Positions 5,341 to 13,252 of a DNA stretch of 46,522 nt are shown here, piece by piece (the first letter of the stretch is position 1; every line of letters begins with the position of its first letter). The notes beneath the pieces are model-generated. The model had not been told where the DNA came from, did not search any database, and was given only the letters and a program-made list of their open reading frames with translations. Origin of the DNA: a bacterium (GTDB lineage: Bacteria; UBP14; UBA6098); assembly GCA_003645085.1 (NCBI GenBank), contig QNEE01000002.1, positions 1 to 46,522 on the forward strand. Direction: 5' to 3'. The translations under genes and the position numbers were made by a program.

Positions 5341-6430
5341 TATTTCGGTCGAGATAAACAGAATAAAATTCAAGAACCCGGTGATGCCCGCGGCTGGACC
5401 GAACGTCCGCAACGCCCGGATGATGCTGGCCGCCATAGACGGCGGCGCCGGAGGGATAGTCTCCAAAACCGTTTCGATTAAACCCGCCGATGATAAAAGG
5501 CCGACAATCCGCAAAGCGATATGCAGGGGGCTTGTCAACTCGGAGACCTGGTCGGAATTGCCCATCGAAAAAATGCTGGTCGAGCTTGCCGAAGTTAAAA
5601 ATGCGGGCGTTCCGCTGATAGTTTCTATCGGCTACAAGCCGGGCGAGGTAGCGAAACTCGGCGAACTTATCGAAAACGAAATCGCGCCGGACGGCTTCGA
5701 ATTTTCGACGCATTATACAGGCAAATCTATCGAACCTCTCGTCGAGGTCGCCAGGTCGCTCCGGAGCGCAGTCGAAGCCCCAATCTGGATGAAAATCTCG
5801 CCGAACACGCCGGATATAGAGGCTCTCGCTATCGCGGTTTCAGAATATGTAGATGCATTCGTCGCGATAAACTCGTTCGGCCCGGTTCTCGATTTCGATA
5901 TCGAAAACCCCATTCCCGAATTAGGCTCCGACTATGGCCAGGGTTGGCTTTCCGGCCCGCCGATTCTGCCTATCGCGCTGCGAATCGTCTATCAAATCCT
6001 ATCGGTTCGGGACAAACCGGTTATCGGTGTCGGAGGCATCTCGAAAGGGGTCGATGCAATTAAATTCATAATGGCGGGCGCTTCTGCTGTGCAGGTCTGT
6101 TCGGCGGCGATAAGAAGCGGCCATTCGGTTTACGGTAAAATTGCAGCCGAAATCGGCGACTGGCTAGAAACGCACGGGTATTCATCAATCGAGAAAATCG
6201 GAGGTTTATATAAAAAGAGGCTCGGCGAACAGAGAACGTTCGATAGAATCCCGGTAATGTCAATCGACCCTGAAAAGTGTATCGGCTGTAAGGCGTGTAT
6301 CGAACGGGGCATCCAAGGGGCCATTTATATGAAAAACGAAACCGCCGCTGTTATTGCGGAAAACTGTATCGGCTGCGGGTTCTGTCAGGATTTTTGCCCA
6401 CAATCCGCAATGCAATTGATGGACAGGTAA
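5333..6430 (+). CDS. Dihydroorotate/dihydropyrimidine dehydrogenase-like FMN oxidoreductase with C-terminal 2x[4Fe-4S] ferredoxin domain
   Basis: NPVMPAAGP, KTV, WMKISP, AINS, GWLSG, IGVGGI, GASAVQVCSA; C-terminal CIGCKAC and CIGCGFCQDFCP. Start placed at ATG 5333 (MADISV) rather than 5306. Confidence 0.8.
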   Translation: MADISVEINRIKFKNPVMPAAGPNVRNARMMLAAIDGGAGGIVSKTVSIKPADDKRPTIRKAICRGLVNSETWSELPIEKMLVELAEVKNAGVPLIVSIGYKPGEVAKLGELIENEIAPDGFEFSTHYTGKSIEPLVEVARSLRSAVEAPIWMKISPNTPDIEALAIAVSEYVDAFVAINSFGPVLDFDIENPIPELGSDYGQGWLSGPPILPIALRIVYQILSVRDKPVIGVGGISKGVDAIKFIMAGASAVQVCSAAIRSGHSVYGKIAAEIGDWLETHGYSSIEKIGGLYKKRLGEQRTFDRIPVMSIDPEKCIGCKACIERGIQGAIYMKNETAAVIAENCIGCGFCQDFCPQSAMQLMDR

Positions 6431-7618
6431 ATGAACATAGCACAAAAAATCAGGGAAAAAACCGAGGGCTACAGCGATTACACCGCGCGTAACCTTTCGG
6501 AAATCGTGAAAATCCAGTCGCTGAGCGGCGAGGAGGCCGCGGTTATCGAGAAACTCGAAATTCTTCTCGGCGACGCCGGTTTCGACGAAGTTTTCACGGA
6601 TGGCCTCGGCAACCTCATCGGAAAAATCGGCGACGGCCCGAAAATTCTCGCTTTCGACGCCCATATCGACACGGTCGATACCGGCGATATATCGCAGTGG
6701 GATTTCGAGCCTTTCTGCGGAGAGATTCGCGACGGCAATGTTCCTGGAAGAGGCAGTGTCGACCAAAAAGGCGGCGCGGCGGCGATGATTACCGCAGGGC
6801 GGATACTCGCGGAACTCGGCTACGACGGCGAATTCACTATTTATTTTACTTTCACAGTTATGGAGGAAGACTGCGACGGTCTCTGCTGGAACTACATCAT
6901 CGAGAAGGAGCGGATAATCCCGGATTTCGCGGTCTTGACCGAGCCGACGAATATGAATATCTATCGCGGGCACCGGGGGCGGATGGAAATCGAGTGCTAT
7001 TTTAGCGGGGAGTCATCCCACGCCAGCGCGCCCGAACGCGGCGAGAACGCGATATATAACGCCTCGCATGCAGCAATACAAATCGAGAAACTGAACGGAA
7101 GATTAAAATCGGACGATTTCCTCGGCAAAGGCACAATCGCGGCGACGCTTATCGAATCGAAATCCCCGTCACTGTGCGCGGTGCCGGATAGATGTCGAAT
7201 CCATCTCGACAGGCGGCTGACACTCGGAGAGACAAAAGAAAGCGCAATCGCCGAGGTGCGCTCAGCTATCGGCGGCGACACCAAAATCGAAATCCCGATA
7301 TATAATAAACCGAGCTACAAAGGCACGAACTTCCAACGAGAGATGTTTTTCCCGACGTGGGCGATTCCAGAAGAGCACAATCTCGTAAAAGCCGGTGTCG
7401 AATCGTATAAAAGGCTTTTCGGTGAACGACCGCGAATAGGCAAATGGGCATTTTCGACCAACGGCGTCGCGATTTGCGGAACGCACGGGATACCGTGTAT
7501 CGGTTTCGGCCCGGGAGACGAGATATTCGCCCACGCGCCGAACGAGGCCGTGCCGATAGAACATCTCGCAAAAGCGGCGGCGTTCTACGCGATGATGCCG
7601 TATATTATCGAAGGATAA
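6431..7618 (+). CDS. ygeY: YgeY-family M20 metallohydrolase
   Basis: DGLGNLIG, FDAHIDTV, GRGSVDQKGG, VMEEDCDG, RGHRGRMEI, FSTNGV, GPGDE..AHAPNE. Confidence 0.87.
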   Translation: MNIAQKIREKTEGYSDYTARNLSEIVKIQSLSGEEAAVIEKLEILLGDAGFDEVFTDGLGNLIGKIGDGPKILAFDAHIDTVDTGDISQWDFEPFCGEIRDGNVPGRGSVDQKGGAAAMITAGRILAELGYDGEFTIYFTFTVMEEDCDGLCWNYIIEKERIIPDFAVLTEPTNMNIYRGHRGRMEIECYFSGESSHASAPERGENAIYNASHAAIQIEKLNGRLKSDDFLGKGTIAATLIESKSPSLCAVPDRCRIHLDRRLTLGETKESAIAEVRSAIGGDTKIEIPIYNKPSYKGTNFQREMFFPTWAIPEEHNLVKAGVESYKRLFGERPRIGKWAFSTNGVAICGTHGIPCIGFGPGDEIFAHAPNEAVPIEHLAKAAAFYAMMPYIIEG

Positions 7619-7649
7619 ACCGCGTGGTGTCGACCCGGTGGTGTCGCCC

Positions 7650-7676
7650 TGTCGTTCCCGCGTAAGCGCGAATCCA
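7650..7676. repeat. Partial GTCATTCCCGCG...GGAATCC-type palindromic repeat
   Basis: gtcgttcccgcg-taag-cgcgaatcca; flanked by three GTGGTGTYG copies (about 7624, 7638, 7677). Confidence 0.5.
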
Positions 7677-7694
7677 GTGGTGTTGTGGCGGGCG

Positions 7695-7730
7695 AACTCT
7701 CCAACTCCTTAACTCTTAAACTCTCCAACT
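7695..7730. repeat. Degenerate 8-bp tandem repeat (AACTCYYH)
   Basis: aactctcc aactcctt aactctta aactctcc aact. Confidence 0.7.
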
Positions 7731-7745
7731 TCTATAAAATTTCTC

Positions 7746-7826
7746 TTGCGTATTTGGGGAAAATGCTTATATTTAATAAAAACCTCCAACGGAAATATTA
7801 TGGCCAATATTGCCAAAAAACGCGGG
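7746..7826 (+). promoter_or_regulatory. Promoter/leader module copy 1 (TTGCGT-16-TATATT plus leader ORF MANIAKKRGI*, 7800-7832)
   Basis: About 60 bp with strong similarity to 8401-8463 (cttatatttaa...aaaacctcYaac...attatggccaatatYgccRaaaaa...ggg). Confidence 0.6.
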
Positions 7827-7833
7827 ATATAAA

Positions 7834-8112
7834 ATGCAATTATTTACCTGTCTCGTAAAAAAAGACGAAGACCAGTTTGCCTCTTTGTGTGTGGAATTGG
7901 ATGTGGCATCGTGCGGGCGCACAAAAGACGAGGCGCTGGAAGGGCTGAGAAACGCTATCGAAGCATACATACGATATATGATTGACGAAGGCAGGGAAAA
8001 GGATATATATCGACCTGTCCCGATGCAAGAGTTGAAAGATTTCCTCTTTCCCGAGGACGACAAACACGAGCAAACGCTGGATGCTATCCCGCTGGAATTC
8101 CAGTATGCTTAA
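7834..8112 (+). CDS. hicB: HicB-family antitoxin (short form, no obvious DNA-binding domain)
   Basis: MQLFTCLVKKDEDQFASLCVELDVASCGRTKDEALEGLRNAIEAYI matches the HicB N-terminal pattern; ATG at 7834 preferred over TTG at 7810. Confidence 0.78.
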   Translation: MQLFTCLVKKDEDQFASLCVELDVASCGRTKDEALEGLRNAIEAYIRYMIDEGREKDIYRPVPMQELKDFLFPEDDKHEQTLDAIPLEFQYA

Positions 8113-8338
8113 AAACATATCCAGCCGGGATGTCGCTTCGATATTGGCCGAGTTGGGGATTTCGCTAAAAAGACGCGGCAAAGAGGACATTTACGCGGGC
8201 GAATATGGTGGGGAATCTCGCGTTGTCGTTGTTCCGAGAAACAAAAAGAGCATACCGAAGGGGACGTTGAGTTCGATATGGCGGCAGGCGGGGATAAACG
8301 CGAAGATAGCCGACGAGATATGGCGAAGGATAAAATAA
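8105..8338 (+). CDS. hicA: HicA-like mRNA interferase toxin
   Basis: 77 aa: SSRDVASILAELGISLKRRGK...VVVVPRNKKSIPKGTLSSIWRQAGI; overlaps hicB by 8 nt. Confidence 0.72.
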   Translation: MLKNISSRDVASILAELGISLKRRGKEDIYAGEYGGESRVVVVPRNKKSIPKGTLSSIWRQAGINAKIADEIWRRIK

Positions 8339-8380
8339 TGACAACACGGCGCGCCGGCACGATATTATTACAAAAAACTA

Positions 8381-8516
8381 TTGCGCGATTGGAATAAAAC
8401 CTTATATTTAAAGCAAAACCTCTAACCAAAAAATTATGGCCAATATCGCCGAAAAATCGGGGGGAAGAACCCATTATAATATAATCACCTCTTCACGGGA
8501 GACCGACGGTGAATAG
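8381..8516 (+). promoter_or_regulatory. Promoter/leader module copy 2 (TTGCGC-16-TATATT plus leader ORF MANIAEKSGG...DGE*, 8436-8516)
   Basis: Duplicate of 7746-7826; the leader stop overlaps the antitoxin GTG start. Confidence 0.6.
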
Positions 8517-8706
8517 CGTAAAGCAAGAGTTGACAGGCGTTCTCGACGAATTATCGAACGAAAAACTAAAGATGTTGTGGTATTTCGCGCAATTCCTGAT
8601 GGAAACCGACGAACTCGGGGCCGAAGAAATAGCCGCGCTCAACAGGGGTATGGAACAATTCGAGAAGGGCGAATATGTCCGCTTCGACGAGATTCGACGT
8701 GGATAA
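8509..8706 (+). CDS. Putative antitoxin partner of RelE (65 aa, acidic)
   Basis: Small acidic ORF with C-terminal EIAALNRGMEQFEKGEYVRFDE; GGGAGA SD upstream; overlaps the relE start. Confidence 0.7.
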   Translation: MNSVKQELTGVLDELSNEKLKMLWYFAQFLMETDELGAEEIAALNRGMEQFEKGEYVRFDEIRRG

Positions 8707-8972
8707 ATACACGGTCGCCCTCTCGAAAGACGCCGCGAAGTATTACCGGAAGGTCGACGAGAAAACGGCCAAAAGGCTCAATAAAGCGTTAGATATAATC
8801 GCGAAAGACCCGTTCGGCGCGAAGGGTGTCAGACCGATAAAAAACTATGCCGGGGAAATACAAATACAGGGTTGGCGGATTGAGAATACTGTTCGGCATA
8901 GACCGGGGAAACAGCATCATCGAGATTTACGCGATAACCCCGCGCGGACAAGCATACAGGGGAAGACAATGA
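8699..8972 (+). pseudogene. relE: RelE/ParE-family toxin with a 1-nt frameshift in an A6 run (8839-8844)
   Basis: VDKYTVALSKDAAKYYRKVDEKTAKRLNKALDIIAKDPFGAKGVRPIK; removing one A continues as TMPGKYKYRVGGLRILFGIDRGNSIIEIYAITPRGQAYRGRQ* (about 90 aa, canonical YRxRVGxxRILF...I.PRG..Y). Confidence 0.85.
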
Positions 8973-9006
8973 CAACACAGCGTAGCGGCGCGGGCGCAAA
9001 AATCCC

Positions 9007-9035
9007 TTGACAGCGGCTGACTGGCCGCTTATATT
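9007..9035 (+). promoter_or_regulatory. Sigma70-type promoter TTGACA-17-TATATT (module copy 3)
   Basis: ttgaca gcggctgactggccgct tatatt. Confidence 0.7.
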
Positions 9036-9055
9036 ATTTTTTGAATCTAATCGAT

Positions 9056-9135
9056 GGAGGATTACGGGATGATTACGTCAGGCGCCGAAAAATACGGGGG
9101 GGGGTGTAACTCGTTGTAACGTAACGAGTTACACC
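9056..9135 (+). other. Leader ORF MITSGAEKYGGGCNSL* (9069-9119) with GGAGG SD, G9 tract (9096-9104) and 13-bp perfect hairpin (9103-9135)
   Basis: GGAGG at 9056-9060, ATG at 9069; stem ggtgtaactcgtt / aacgagttacacc with loop gtaacgt containing the TAA. Confidence 0.55.
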
Positions 9136-9202
9136 GATACCCATTCGGCGGTGAGGCGCGGGGGCACTCCGCTCCCTGCTCTCTGCACACAGCTAATTAT
9201 AT

Positions 9203-9245
9203 ACCGCTCTTGTTTGGCTAATTAACCAGCAAGGGCGGTTTTTTT
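9203..9245 (+). terminator. Intrinsic terminator upstream of the nuclease-like gene (attenuator position)
   Basis: accgctcttgtttgg-ctaattaa-ccagcaagggcggt followed by a T7 run. Confidence 0.72.
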
Positions 9246-9279
9246 ATACCCGAAAATTAAAACCTTATAAGGAGGAAAA

Positions 9280-9816
9280 ATGGGATTTGTACCAAGTAAA
9301 AGAAAAGGATTACTTTGGGAAGACGCTAAAAGACTAAACGAAACGATTTTGAAATGCCCTTTTAATACAACAGGTAAAGACGAGAAAGCTTTCGAAATGG
9401 GGTTTTCAACTACGCTAGTAAAAGATCAGGATTCGTTTAATAACGATATACGGGCTCAGATATTAAAATCGAGCAAAGTAGAAAGTATTTATTGTTTCGG
9501 GAAAAAACATAGACCTGACCTTGCAATAGATGAGGACGGTATCGCAATAGAAATCAAGTTAATCGATTACGAAGGTCTTAAACACGCAATAGGACAAGGA
9601 TTCGTATATCGATTGAAATACAAATTTGTCTTCCTAATTCTGATAATAGAAGAGAAAAAGAAAGATTTCTATGAAGACTTAGCGGGGGGAAAGGAAAAAG
9701 ACCTGGAAGACCTCCTCACCCATTTATCGGAGAAAATGAATATCTTTACATACATAGTCCCTAATTTCAACATTGTAAAACTAGGTATGAAAAAAAACGT
9801 TTCCTTTTTCAAATAG
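9280..9816 (+). CDS. Hypothetical PD-(D/E)xK nuclease-fold protein
   Basis: E (EKAFE)...RPDL...IEIK...AIGQGFVY (QxxxY); AAGGAGG SD; AT-rich. Confidence 0.55.
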   Translation: MGFVPSKRKGLLWEDAKRLNETILKCPFNTTGKDEKAFEMGFSTTLVKDQDSFNNDIRAQILKSSKVESIYCFGKKHRPDLAIDEDGIAIEIKLIDYEGLKHAIGQGFVYRLKYKFVFLILIIEEKKKDFYEDLAGGKEKDLEDLLTHLSEKMNIFTYIVPNFNIVKLGMKKNVSFFK

Positions 9817-9850
9817 AGCCGTGAATAGAAAGAAGGAGAACTTGATTAGA

Positions 9851-11248
9851 ATGAAAGTGAACATTGCTTTGCTTATGGTTGCACTCGTAGGCATTTGCTC
9901 CGCCGGATGGGAAAGGACATTAGGCGGAAGCGGTAATGACTATGGCGGGGCGGTCTTGAAAACTACCGATGGAGGATATGTTATTGGTGGGTCGAAAGAA
10001 ACATCGGCTTATTCAGGTATTTATGATGCGTATCTTATAAAAACAAATTCATCTGGTATTCCCGTCTGGTCTGGCACTTACGGAACAAGCGATTATGATT
10101 ATGGCTGTTCAATAGCTACGTCTCTAGATGGAGGGTATGTAATAGCGGGATATACGTGGGCATCAACAAGAGGATACGATTTCTATCTTGTCAAAACTAA
10201 TTCGTCGGGGAGTATGTTATGGTCCAGAACATATGGTAGTAGTAATCATGACTTTGCTAGGTCTATTGCACGCACGTCGGATGGAGGTTATATTATGGCC
10301 GGATATACATTTGAAACGGATCCATATTTAAATGATATTTATGTTGTCAAAACGAATTCTTCAGGGGATGAGATTTGGAACAAAACGTTTAGTGGAAGTT
10401 TTAATTATGTAGCTTTGTCAATAATTCAGACAACAGACGGGGGATATATAATCGCAGGATATACAGATTCGTTAGGCGCAGGAGAAGACGACGTTTACAT
10501 CATTAAGACCAACTCATCTGGGAATATTGCATGGACAAGAATAATTGACTTGGGATCAAGAGACGTCGCTTCTTCCATTTTACAAACAACAGCAGGCGAT
10601 TACTTAATAACTGGTTCTAGTGAATCAGTAGGATTAGGTGAATCCGATTTATTCATTTTAAAACTTAACTCTTCGGGTAGTACTCAATGGATTAAAACTT
10701 ACGGAGGCAGTGATGATGACAATGGGGCTTCTATATCCAGAACTTCCGACAACGGATTTATTATAGTAGGTTCAACACAATCCTACGGAGCCGGCGAATA
10801 TGATGTTTATCTCCTGAAAACTAATTCATCAGGCGACACTTTATGGACGCAAACTTACGGTAGAATAAGCAATGATTATGGTACATCAGTTTCACAGACA
10901 TCGGATGGAGGTTATATTATTGGAGGGACTACTGAATCTTTTGGTTCAGGCGGTTCGGATATTTATCTCATCAAGGTTGACGCCGTTGGGATAGTTGAAT
11001 GGGTAAACCAAAAACCACGTAACCTTTTCATTTCCGCCTATCCAAATCCCTTCAATTCCGCTTGCCGTATTTCTGCGCCGGAGAATGCCGTCGTAGAAAT
11101 ATTCGATATAAACGGCAGGAGTATTGCAGAGTTCGATGGCGGAGACCGGATATGGAAACCGGAGGCATCGGTTGGCGGCGGTGTATATCTGGTCAGGGCA
11201 AAAATCGGGGATAAGGATATTACGAAACGCGTCGTTTATTTGAAATGA
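9851..11248 (+). CDS. Secreted 7-repeat beta-propeller-like protein with T9SS/Por-type (FlgD-Ig-like) C-terminal sorting domain
   Basis: Signal peptide; 7 repeats of W..TYG...D...S...T.DGGY.I.G.T......D.Y..KTNSSG; CTD YPNPFNS...EIFDINGR...W...GVYLVRA...KRVVYLK. Start could be TTG 9842 or ATG 9851. Confidence 0.8.
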   Translation: MKVNIALLMVALVGICSAGWERTLGGSGNDYGGAVLKTTDGGYVIGGSKETSAYSGIYDAYLIKTNSSGIPVWSGTYGTSDYDYGCSIATSLDGGYVIAGYTWASTRGYDFYLVKTNSSGSMLWSRTYGSSNHDFARSIARTSDGGYIMAGYTFETDPYLNDIYVVKTNSSGDEIWNKTFSGSFNYVALSIIQTTDGGYIIAGYTDSLGAGEDDVYIIKTNSSGNIAWTRIIDLGSRDVASSILQTTAGDYLITGSSESVGLGESDLFILKLNSSGSTQWIKTYGGSDDDNGASISRTSDNGFIIVGSTQSYGAGEYDVYLLKTNSSGDTLWTQTYGRISNDYGTSVSQTSDGGYIIGGTTESFGSGGSDIYLIKVDAVGIVEWVNQKPRNLFISAYPNPFNSACRISAPENAVVEIFDINGRSIAEFDGGDRIWKPEASVGGGVYLVRAKIGDKDITKRVVYLK

Positions 11249-11422
11249 CGTAGGGGCACGGCGTTGACGTGCCCGCCGTAAAATCGGCGCAAATCTCAAA
11301 ACGGGTTTGCCACCGTCAAACCCCTACGGATTGAAAACGATAAATAATTGCGTAGGGGAGACCCTTGTGGTCTCCCGAAAAACGGGACGGCACAAGACCG
11401 TCCCCTACGGATTGAAAACGAT
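11249..11422. repeat. Two CGTAGGGG...CCCCTACG REP-doublet (REPIN/BIME-like) units
   Basis: Units at 11249-11328 and 11351-11409 with internal hairpins; each is followed by an identical 21-mer cccctacggattgaaaacgat (11321-11341, 11402-11422). Confidence 0.75.
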
Positions 11423-11426
11423 GATT

Positions 11427-11461
11427 GGAATACGGAATTCGGAATATTGAATGCGGAACGG
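11427..11461. repeat. Degenerate heptamer tandem repeat (GGAATNY)
   Basis: ggaatac ggaattc ggaatat tgaatgc ggaacgg. Confidence 0.65.
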
Positions 11462-11472
11462 GGAAATAGGCT

Positions 11473-11547
11473 GTCATTTCGTGGAGCGAAACGACGATAA
11501 ACCTTATCAATAAAAACAGAAAGATTTCTCCCTCTGGTCGAAATGAC
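11473..11547. repeat. GTCATTTCG...AGATTTCTC...CGAAATGAC palindromic dispersed repeat
   Basis: Inverted termini gtcatttcg / cgaaatgac; the right half is 25/27 identical to 20975-21001 and similar to 41361-41387. Confidence 0.75.
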
Positions 11548-11663
11548 GGGAGAAATTAGAGGGTGGCTAAAAGGTCACCTTTTTTATTCCCTCTCCCTCG
11601 GCCCCTCTCCCACTGAACGGTAGAGAAAAAAAGGGTGTTTTAATGGGATGATGTGGCCGGGAA

Positions 11664-11695
11664 CCCTATACCCTATACCCTATACCCTAGACCCT
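11664..11695. repeat. Heptamer tandem repeat (CCCTATA)3 CCCTAGA CCCT
   Basis: Read directly from the sequence. Confidence 0.85.
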
Positions 11696-11887
11696 TATTT
11701 CTGACGAGAGAAGGTTGTTCGAAGAGCCGGATTAGGGAACGAACTGCCGGTAGTTTAGCGAAGCCGAAACAACCATTTGAGATTTCTCCATCATTTCCGC
11801 TTGATTTCCTGGGATATGCTCGTATATTCCGCGTTGGGGAAAATATCGGCTGCTGTATATAACATATATGAAGAACGGGAAACTGCT

Positions 11888-13252
11888 ATGAAAAATAATT
11901 CCAAATCCGGGGCGCTTCTAACGCCGAAAGAGATAGTCGCCGAACTCGACCGGTATATCGTAGGGCAGGACGAGGCCAAGAAAAGCGTGGCAATCGCACT
12001 TCGCAACCGGTGGCGCAGGCAGATGGTCGAAGGCCCTATCAAGAACGAAATCCTGCCGGCTAATATTCTAATGATAGGCCCGACCGGTGTCGGCAAGACC
12101 GAAATCTCTCGGAGGCTTGCGGCGTTAGCGGGCGCACCGTTTGTCAAAGTCGAGGCCAGCAAGTTCACCGAGGTCGGCTATGTCGGCCGCGATGTCGAGT
12201 CGATGATTCGCGACCTGGTTGATATCGCGGTTGCGCAAGTCCGTGACGAGCATGAAAAAGAGGTCCGCGTTCAGGCTATGAAAAATGTCGAGGAGCGGTT
12301 GCTCGATTTACTCACTCCTAAACGACCCAAACGCAGGGAAACTGAACCCGAAAGGGATAAAGAACGCACCGACCGTATCCGAAAGAAAATCGAGAGCCAG
12401 CTCGACAGCGGTCTTCTCGACGACCGGAAAATAGAAATCGAGGTTCCCGAATCGATTATGCCGACGGTCGAGATTTTTTCGCCGATGGGTATGGAAGAAA
12501 TGGGACTCAATATCTCCGAGATGTTCGAGGGGATGATTCCGAAGCGCACGAAATCGCGCACGGTTACAGTCAGCGAGGCCCGCAAAATATTATTGCCGAT
12601 GGAAATCAACAACCTTATCGACCACGACAAGATAATCGATTCGGCGTTGGCGCGCGCACAGGAAACGGGAATTATATTTATCGACGAAATCGATAAGATT
12701 GTTGCCAGGGGCAGCGGCGGCGCCGGCCCGGATGTCTCTCGCGAGGGTGTTCAACGCGACCTTTTGCCGGTTATCGAGGGATGCAACGTCGCCACGAAAT
12801 ACGGGATGGTGCGCACCGACCATATATTGTTCATCGGCGCTGGAGCGTTTCACGGCACGAGCCCGAGCGACCTTATCCCTGAACTCCAGGGCAGATTACC
12901 GATACGCGTAGAACTAAATTCCCTGACCGCAAAGGATTTCATCCGCATTCTTGTCGAACCGGAAAACTCGCTGATAAAGCAATACGAGGCGTTAATGTCC
13001 GCCGAGGGCGTCAGGCTAAAATTCTCCGACGGTGCGATTAAGGAAATCGCCAATATCGCCGATAAAGTCAACGCATCCGCGGAAAACATCGGTGCGCGAC
13101 GCCTTCATACCGTTATGACCACACTCCTCGAAGACATTATGTTCGAAGCCCCGGAAAAAACAGGCAAAGAAATCAAACTCACACAAACCACCGTCCGCAC
13201 AAAACTCAAGGATATTGTCGCCGACGAGGATTTGACGAAGTATATATTATGA
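11888..13252 (+). CDS. hslU: ATP-dependent protease ATPase subunit HslU
   Basis: [77 protein letters not shown]; start at ATG 11888. Confidence 0.97.

Follow-up and report, generated by a model that had tools for sequence, protein, structure and literature searches.

How did three short gene units, each with its own promoter and a related leader, come to stand in a row between ygeY and hslU in a bacterium of the candidate phylum UBP14? The locus lies on contig QNEE01000002.1 of assembly GCA_003645085.1 (GTDB lineage Bacteria; UBP14; UBA6098), of which positions 1 to 46,522 of the forward strand were analyzed and are called the window here. A preliminary description of positions 7746-11248, made from the sequence alone, read the row as a capture array for toxin-antitoxin (TA), defense and surface genes, analogous to integron cassettes and with AATGAC, at the end of each unit, as part of the recombination site. 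We favor, with moderate confidence, a different account, in which the interval is a strain-variable island on a paralogous promoter/leader family, growing and exchanging cargo by recombination. An integron-like capture machine it is not, on present evidence. The preliminary observations are confirmed in part, and their interpretation is supported in part: homologous modules and replacement of cargo stand, whereas integron-like capture fails on the unit edges, the attC fold, the promoter carried by every unit and the lack of a linked recombinase.

The window is contig C2 of a metagenome-assembled genome (MAG) of 2.67 Mb, 268 contigs and 50% GC, labeled G000; other C numbers without a genome label are contigs of the same MAG. 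Our phylum-wide comparison used 26 species genomes (GTDB phylum), the same 26 that a class-level search covers. G003 belongs to another genus of the same family, and G009 and G023 to two other families of the phylum. L131 is a near-identical strain contig (JGI 3300033149), and L176 and L182 are further strain contigs. Assemblies made independently from several samples carry an identical ygeY-hslU array, which excludes an assembly artifact.

Promoter-leader modules

Each unit opens with a module of ~100 nt consisting of an A-run, a -35/-10 promoter, a mini open reading frame (mini-ORF) ending in GCC, a second A-run and a G-run. We call the copies of units 1, 2 and 3 U1, U2 and U3; window features are on the + strand unless noted. 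U1 (7735-7828, type A; nhmmer E 7e-15, model R2 E 1.1e-15) has the A-run, the promoter TTGCGT-16-TATATT at 7746-7774, a mini-ORF from ATG 7800 to TAA 7832 (MANIAKKRGI) and GCC-AAAAAA-CGC-GGG, and its mini-ORF stops 1 nt 5' of the hicB ATG. U2 (8371-8467; nhmmer E 2.3e-14 plus alignment) has the promoter TTGCGC-16-TATATT at 8381-8408, a mini-ORF from ATG 8436 to TAG 8516, which overlaps the antitoxin GTG start at 8509, and GCC-GAAAAA-TCG-GGGGGG. It is a hybrid, resembling type C in its -35 and spacer and type A in its downstream half. U3 (8996-9104, type B; nhmmer E 4.8e-24) has TTGACA-17-TATATT at 9007-9035, a Shine-Dalgarno (SD) sequence GGAGG, ATG 9069, GCC-GAAAAA-TAC and nine G residues at 9096-9104. 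The three promoter-like sites are thus present as first described, and a consensus scan lists just the last of them (11/12).

The resemblance among the units holds up as well. The block shared by units 1 and 2 spans 79 nt at 77% identity, with a 42-nt core at 86%, and GCC(G/A)AAAAA-NNN-GGG(G) occurs in all three. A search of the genome and its relatives, as proposed in the preliminary description, found the module again on C24, C17, C46, C194, C235 and C267 and in G003, G009 and G023. With nhmmer and model R2 we count nine full and two partial copies in the MAG: three on C2, three on C235 (one of them partial), one each on C24, C17, C46 and C194, and a partial copy on C267. Outside the MAG the module occurs at G003:C309 and, with a full leader, at G009:C51 and G023:C126. 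All copies can be aligned from the A-rich run 5' of the -35 through the -10, the ATG-led mini-ORF, the A-run and the G-run, and they fall into three sequence types (A, B and C) plus hybrids. Unit 1 matches C24 at 90% over 88 nt (E 1.7e-23), and unit 3 matches C235 at 96% over 96 nt (E 9.5e-40). Judged by these alignments, the similarity of the three units is homology and not chance.

Two kinds of genes follow the module. At U1, U2, two copies on C235 (C235a and C235b), C194 and G003:C309 it precedes a type II TA pair, and at U3, C24, C235c, C67 and G023 it leads into a hairpin, a terminator and a gene for a secreted protein.

The upstream part of the type-A module, at 7650-7733, holds a palindrome resembling repetitive extragenic palindromic (REP) sequences, GTCGTTCCCGCGTAAGCGCGAATCC, followed by five head-to-tail 8-nt repeats, AACTCYNN (7694-7733), directly 5' of the -35. 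The same block precedes the C24 and C267 modules. The repeat array may be an UP-like element or an array of regulator-binding sites. The palindrome itself (7650-7686) had been noted at the left edge of the array and is real; the GTGTTGT noted beside it is GTGTGGT in the C24 and C267 blocks.

Such blocks could mean that the module and its upstream palindrome form a non-autonomous mobile element (a miniature inverted-repeat transposable element or REP 'portable promoter') and that the array records three independent insertions. The type-A copies (U1, C24 and C267) share palindrome, 8-nt repeats and promoter at ~90%, REP families are abundant, a Y1 transposase resembling REP-associated tyrosine transposases (RAYT-like) is encoded on C94, and a strain variant 3' of hslV diverges exactly at GTCATTC. 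However, we saw no terminal inverted repeats or target-site duplications around the modules; there are just ~11 copies, mosaic among types A, B and C and hybrids, with edges that vary by copy; and at C235a the U3-like promoter, SD and ATG-ATT are the true, native start of a hicB gene. We consider independent insertion of a mobile promoter unlikely.

Slightly less probable still is that no special system exists and that the island shows ordinary TA clustering, shared promoter and SD conventions and local tandem duplication. TA pairs do cluster elsewhere in this genome behind other repeated promoters (C194, C18), and R2 matches in most relatives are weak and limited to the promoter part. Yet identities of 90-96% over 88-96 nt across contigs far exceed what shared hexamers would give, the hairpin and terminator behind some modules are conserved across families with covariation, and the same architecture is found in G009 and G003.

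A structured leader ahead of secreted proteins

In unit 3 the module continues into a complete leader (9047-9256; 161.9 bits with R1, a covariance model of the full leader; fold z = -4.4). It consists of the mini-ORF, the G-tract, a hairpin at 9106-9132, a variable GC-rich insert, a terminator stem at 9204-9238 with its T-run at 9239-9246, and a tail ..CCCGAAAA. In its homologs, too, the hairpin (GTAACTCNTT-loop-AANGAGTTAC) is conserved; a strong intrinsic terminator comes next, and a conserved tail (..GCNCGAAAA) and an SD separate it from the gene for a secreted protein. Seven copies in the MAG are recovered by R1, and just two elsewhere in the phylum. The G009 copy immediately follows hicAB and phd/relE pairs, and the G023 copy precedes a protein of the type IX secretion system (T9SS). 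An alignment of ten copies has 92.6% of its pair cells paired, and both sides have changed in 11 of the 25 pairs, a level reached by 0 of 500 shuffles, figures to be read with the caveat that the alignment had been fitted to the model; slid registers of the same alignment drop to 32-53% paired.

An Rfam scan of positions 7400-11900 at E up to 5 gave two chance-level matches (E > 3), neither on the leader. Two terminator pattern scans of genome contigs returned almost exclusively unrelated terminators, R1 upholding only the two known homologs among them, and a metagenome scan with the hairpin returned just the MAG's own contigs and two chance matches in a Firmicute accB gene. Behind the complete leaders lie a T9SS hydrolase-like gene on C24 (TIGR04183, 35.2 bits against a cut-off of 23), a Big_7 lipoprotein gene on C235 and a PEGA lipoprotein gene on C67; C17 retains a truncated remnant, and C46 has no cargo. 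The cargo behind the C267 module scores 25.1 bits with Por_Secre_tail, below the cut-off of 27. The C46 copy (C46:14740-14810), a complete leader and terminator with no ORF behind, is an orphan, consistent with loss of cargo or with a stand-alone small RNA.

A difference between two strain lineages points to what the leader may do. The window sequence reads G9-T-G, and the mini-ORF begun at ATG 9069 meets its stop codon at 9117-9119, within the hairpin loop. T9105 is missing from L131, which thus has ten G residues; the ORF there is 56 aa long (51 aa if counted from ATG 9069) and reaches a TAA in the terminator loop, so that one 1-nt indel at 9105 changes the frame of the leader. The long frame also stays open as far as the terminator loop in C24, C235c, C46 and C67. 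We propose that unit 3 may be a G-tract-dependent leader-ORF attenuator, with expression of the cargo set by the frame across the G-tract. In the G9-T-G strain the ORF would end in the hairpin loop and the terminator could form, whereas in the G10 strain a translating ribosome would melt the 5' arm of the terminator and allow read-through. A classical 1:2 / 2:3 / 3:4 antiterminator was considered and rejected: with region 1 masked, the terminator was still the minimum-energy fold in all six leaders.

The same principle has a precedent in the pil1 pilus operon of Streptococcus gallolyticus, which has a phase-variable leader-peptide attenuator (Danne et al. 2014, PMC3894217): a repeat tract in the leader-peptide gene sets peptide length, and a longer peptide lets the ribosome destabilize the terminator (PMC3894217). 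Both systems place a promoter, a leader ORF with a slippery repeat and a premature stem-loop terminator before a surface-protein gene, and in unit 3 a 1-nt indel at the G-tract decides between an early stop and reaching the terminator loop. They differ in the tract, a homopolymeric G-run here and GCAGA units in pil1, and in phylum. Unlike pil1, the leaders described here form a multi-copy family that also drives TA operons, and some of their tracts are interrupted.

Two further systems share part of this design. In pyrBI of E. coli the leader ORF extends through an intrinsic terminator, as in the long frame here, and a closely following ribosome blocks the hairpin; the signal there is UTP-dependent pausing of the polymerase, whereas here the frame would be set by a DNA indel, or possibly slippage, at the G-run. 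The vlp and vsa genes of Mycoplasma have a conserved 5' region with a homopolymer tract before diverse surface-protein genes. The conserved promoter/5' region, the tract and the exchange of alleles between strains recur here, but there are no invertible elements or silent cassettes, and the cargo consists of unrelated T9SS substrates and lipoproteins.

An alternative is that the leader of unit 3 and its homologs are a gene for a small protein of 32-56 aa (..GGVT.CN...Y.D...RSC.G*) whose 3' end overlaps its own terminator. One frame indeed lacks stops between the G-tract and the terminator loop in L131, C235c, C24, C46, C67 and G023, the inserts of U3 and C67 preserve it, and Cys, Asn and Tyr positions recur. 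Against coding stand the ATG, out of frame in four of nine copies, and substitutions at second codon positions (R/H/L/P at one site) that are compensated in the hairpin; nor was a protein family found. We therefore give the small protein a low probability. The GC-rich repeat within the U3 insert (..GCGGAGAGCGGAGCGCCCTCTGCTC..CTGCGC; window 9140-9195) is also present in the C67 leader, with the long frame kept open, and flanks TA pairs on C46 (10000-11200) and C121 (7000-7100).

Cargo exchange and insertion into conserved gene pairs

The cargo of unit 3 has been replaced as a block. L131 is 98.6% identical to window positions 6001-9256 and 98.2% to 11219-11711; between them, the 1962 bp at 9257-11218 are replaced by 744 bp with a gene for a 161-aa lipoprotein, to which neither PADLOC nor NCBIfam gave a name. 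In the window this variable segment has a GC content of 34-44%, against 50-55% in the flanks. It includes an AT-rich ORF of 178 aa resembling PD-(D/E)xK nucleases (9280-9816; string HRPDLAI..IEIK), with no match in Pfam, NCBIfam or PADLOC, and most of a gene (9851-11248) for a 465-aa beta-propeller protein whose T9SS type A tail scores 37.2 bits with TIGR04183 (cut-off 23). Neither cargo has a paralog in the MAG.

The edges of the swap are informative. The left one, at 9244-9256, falls in the terminator T-run, and beyond it L131 has a post-terminator tail of the G009/G023 type; the incoming DNA therefore brought its own leader end. The right one, at 11219, lies 27 nt before the propeller stop. 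Strain boundaries had been expected at AATGAC, and these two lie elsewhere. Past the right edge, the last nine codons of the T9SS tail (ITKRVVYLK*, 11219-11248, including AAATGAC) are retained in L131 as a fossil of nine or ten codons (ATTACAAAACGTGTCGTTTATTTGAAATGAC) beside a dispersed repeat. That repeat, CATTTC(C/G)CCGTAA(G/C)TCTTTGAAAA(T/A)CAAT (~29 nt), occurs at L131:7868-7896, where it forms the right junction of the cargo replacement, and at C18:3102, C81:183, C191:3504 and C194:2714.

Orphan T9SS-tail fossils comprising the last 9-23 codons (..ITKRVVYLK*) lie between genes at L131:7895-7925, at G003:C309 around 2425-2465, directly after a ACAACACGGCGCGCC block, and at C5:25370-25433. 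They suggest, as read from these remnants, repeated deletion or replacement of tail-bearing cargo that spared the 3' end. A milder form of turnover is seen at C24 (4042-5313). C24 is near-identical to L176 through the leader and ~200 nt into the cargo gene, beyond which the divergence is 15-28%. By this comparison the C24 T9SS cargo is a hypervariable allele. The idea that its leader is better conserved than its flanks was dropped: the genes upstream match just as closely, and the divergence lies in the body of the cargo gene.

Whole arrays also interrupt conserved neighborhoods. hslV and hslU are adjacent in all six same-family genomes compared; here they are on separate contigs, and in relatives hslU is not beside ygeY. 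On C17 (16156-17460), a type-A module whose hairpin is degenerate comes after hslV; next are two segments shared with the window, and then argF. These segments are 95% and 93% identical to window segments upstream of hslU (11403-11688). Also 3' of hslV, the low-coverage contig L182 (1192-1361) diverges from C17:16765 exactly after TTTGTCATTC, at the left end of a REP-like palindrome. Likewise, leuD and leuB, adjacent in two of three relatives, are split here, on C235, by a TA-plus-leader array (L235:534-3905) in which three TA units precede a leader and a lipoprotein gene. Its order is hicB and hicA (with an in-frame TAA), a relB-like gene and a truncated relE, a second hicB/hicA pair, a complete type-C leader and the Big_7 lipoprotein gene. 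A TA-plus-leader array of similar kind is found in another family (G009). From these gene orders we conclude that the arrays are insertions into conserved neighborhoods.

The account that we favor runs as follows. The ygeY-hslU interval would be a lineage-specific island of three separate transcription units, each under one module copy with a sigma-70-type promoter and a short translated mini-ORF. In units 1 and 2 the module would supply type II TA operons (hicBA and relBE/parDE-like) with a promoter and a coupled upstream ORF; in unit 3 it would extend to the hairpin and intrinsic terminator ahead of a horizontally acquired nuclease-like ORF and the T9SS propeller. Growth of the array and exchange of cargo may proceed via homologous or microhomology recombination, with dispersed leader copies as 5' substrates and conserved T9SS-tail ends or REP-type repeats as 3' substrates, and no dedicated site-specific recombinase would be required.

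If this account is right, the barely studied candidate phylum harbors an uncatalogued family of structured leaders, absent from Rfam. The unit 3 leader would be a second independent case in which a slippery tract in a leader ORF, coupled to transcription termination, switches surface proteins. Dispersed regulatory repeats and secretion-tail ends would then act as homology arms for swapping surface and defense-like cargo, and TA pairs would accrete next to such arms.

Several points weigh against this account. The recombination mechanism is deduced from a handful of junctions, and GGCGC(GC)C stands beside an A-run at every unit junction, which a site-specific model could use as well. We found one strain variant of the unit 3 cargo and none gaining or losing a TA unit; exact-protein look-ups with the 454-aa HslU, the second HicA of C235, the C24 cargo and the C235 antitoxins brought up no variant in which the number of TA units differs. 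The leader stands 5' of only a few of ~90 T9SS-tail genes, and the single indel between two strains is the sole tract variation seen. The G-tracts of C24 and C46 are interrupted, with the short ('off') frame in all strains seen, so that phase variation is at best a trait of some copies. Third codon positions are not enriched for variation in the leader ORF, and the sequence of the peptide is probably not under selection. Finally, no alternative antiterminator pairing is predicted in the six leaders that were folded, which leaves direct melting of the 5' arm of the terminator as the likely switch.

Unit ends, toxin-antitoxin pairs and flanking genes

As first described, AATGAC overlaps the stop codon of the last gene in all three units (8337, 8968 and 11243). 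A part in a recombination site does not hold, the hexamer belonging twice to a leader SD/ATG and once to a ..YLK* string. At 8337 and 8968 it lies within one homologous block, ATGACAACAC(G/A)GCG. The first instance is part of a type-C leader-start remnant, GGATAAAATA-ATG(8338)-ACAACACGGCGCGCC (8324-8355), which overlaps the hicA stop as TAATG. The second, CA-ATG(8969)-ACAACACAGCG..GGCGCGGGCG (8957-8998), overlaps the relE stop as ATGA, and the segment behind relE also stands after hicA on C235 (96 nt, 96%). An intact copy at C235:1330 reads GGAGATAAGATA-ATG-ACA-ACA-CGG-CGC-GCC-AAAAAA-CGT-GGGGG before a hairpin, a terminator and the lipoprotein gene, and because it runs on in this way into A-run, G-run, hairpin and terminator, we read the ATGACAACAC block as a leader SD and start. 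By this alignment, a type-C leader mini-ORF (MTTRRA..) that overlaps the toxin stop has its SD and ATG in AATGACAACACGGCGCGCC, behind both hicA and relE. In the recombination account, AATGACAACAC behind each toxin would be the translationally coupled SD and ATG of a further leader copy, the rest of which was lost.

The third AATGAC is AAA-TGA-C, the end of the T9SS tail of the propeller (..VVYLK*). Other tail genes behind modules end in AAATAA (C24) or AAATGAT (C267), and ~20 tail genes end ..YLK*. Genome-wide, the hexamer is not enriched at stops: among 1876 ORFs with 120 aa or more, 16 have it across their stop, and TGA stops account for 13, against 10.4 expected from flanking-base usage. 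Without the overlap filter there are 21 AATGAC stops, many of them ATGA overlaps with a next ORF that starts Met-Thr; in this genome, AATGAC at a stop usually stems from an ATGA or TAATG overlap. The recurrence of AATGAC that suggested a recombination site was thus a false lead, produced by start-stop overlaps and a ..YLK-stop string.

The preliminary description had further taken AATGAC as the right terminus of REP palindromes. REP-like GTCATT..N33..AATGAC palindromes are real (38 AATGAC sites have GTCATT at most 45 nt upstream, counting both strands), and the locus resembles REP/RAYT systems in these scattered palindromes, in the presence of a Y1 gene in the genome and in the REP-like palindromes that flank the island and the type-A modules. 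The unit ends, unlike those systems, are not REP termini: those at 8337 and 8968 lie in the leader start block and that at 11243 in ..YLK*. Of three outcomes named beforehand as speaking against capture, namely a module confined to this locus, cargo boundaries off AATGAC and no excess of AATGAC at stops, the last two are what we found.

The absence of an integrase, noted at the outset, extends beyond the window. None of 12 PF00589 (tyrosine recombinase) matches lies on C2, C24, C17, C46, C67, C194, C235 or C267, and no Y1 transposase is encoded on the window contig or any other module-bearing contig. Folding both strands of 8300-8400 and 8935-9035 against shuffles gave no attC-like structure at the unit ends (z +1.0 to -0.65). 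Chromosomal integron arrays with TA cassettes and clusters of attC sites lacking integron-integrases (CALINs) (PMC4889954, PMC13108822) resemble the window in their tandem short units, TA pairs with their own promoters, strain-variable content and, for CALINs, no integrase nearby. They differ in that every unit here has a promoter, the repeat is at the 5' end as promoter and leader, no attC-like fold is seen, the swap has homology-type edges and no IntI is linked.

A capture model would need a recombinase acting in trans from elsewhere in the genome on a crossover core of GGCGC(GC)C plus an A-run. Such a model could point to GGCGCGCC or a near copy beside an A-run at U1|U2, U2|U3, C235a|b, the left edge of the C235 island and G003:C309, to arrays lying inside conserved gene pairs, to six full-length tyrosine recombinases elsewhere in the genome, and to TA pairs that resemble the TA cassettes of chromosomal integrons (PMC13108822). 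If true, it would give a candidate phylum its own promoter-bearing equivalent of integron cassettes, with arrays planted inside hslV|hslU and leuD|leuB. We regard it as very improbable, since homology of mini-ORF ends accounts for the junction sequences, the sequence to the right of GGCGCGCC is different at each junction, the exact 16-mer GACAACACGGCGCGCC occurs just four times in the 26 genomes (C2:8340, C235:1313-1328, C235:2332-2347 and, after relE, G003:C309) with near matches elsewhere at control level, and the sole observed strain swap has its edges elsewhere.

In unit 1 a hicB-like antitoxin gene (7834-8112; Pfam HicB_lk_antitox E 0.0059, 17.2 bits, below the cut-off of 27) overlaps by 8 nt a hicA toxin gene (8105-8338; HicA_toxin E 3.5e-10, 40.3 bits against a cut-off of 27; genome search match C2:8123-8296). 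With its toxin domain and an adjoining, overlapping HicB-type gene, the pair qualifies by sequence as a type II TA system of the HicAB kind. In unit 2 a 65-aa antitoxin candidate (8509-8706), proposed from its position and its GTGGATAA overlap with the toxin start, has no family match in Pfam, NCBIfam or PADLOC. It precedes a relE/parE-type toxin pseudogene (8699-8972) that is frameshifted near 8850 into two ORF pieces, with a read-through product matching ParE_toxin (E 2.2e-6, 28.6 bits against a cut-off of 23). This gene is broken in both the window strain and L131, the latter with an additional 1-nt deletion at 8931. Decayed toxins are also found in the C235 array, where one hicA has an in-frame stop and relE is truncated; the relB/relE pair at G003:C309 is the intact counterpart of that decayed pair. 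TA pairs are gathered beside leaders at three loci (the window, C235 and G009), and four of eight HicA genes lie at most 1.5 kb from a module, although such neighborhoods make up ~1% of the assembly.

The island is bounded on the left by a ygeY-like M20 peptidase gene (6431-7618; Pfam Peptidase_M20 E 2.9e-26, plus M20_dimer), which is identical in independent assemblies; the nearest YgeY protein is from a 'Candidatus Hydrothermota' MAG (73% aa identity), with WOR-3 MAGs farther off. On the right, a REP-rich spacer (11249-11887, strand not assigned), in which one assembly ends and of which 11403-11467 and 11628-11688 also occur downstream of hslV on C17, leads to hslU (11888-13252; Pfam AAA_2 E 2.9e-31). 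A further TA array lies at C194:1240-3400. There, the 5' module of the leader family drives relB/relE, and a second repeated promoter (TTGC..GATAACAAAGATGGTGTATATTGAGGGCGACGGAGA) stands before a hicA fragment and hicB and again before a membrane protein gene. Promoters of this second type are also found 5' of a TA pair on C18 (5100-5400).

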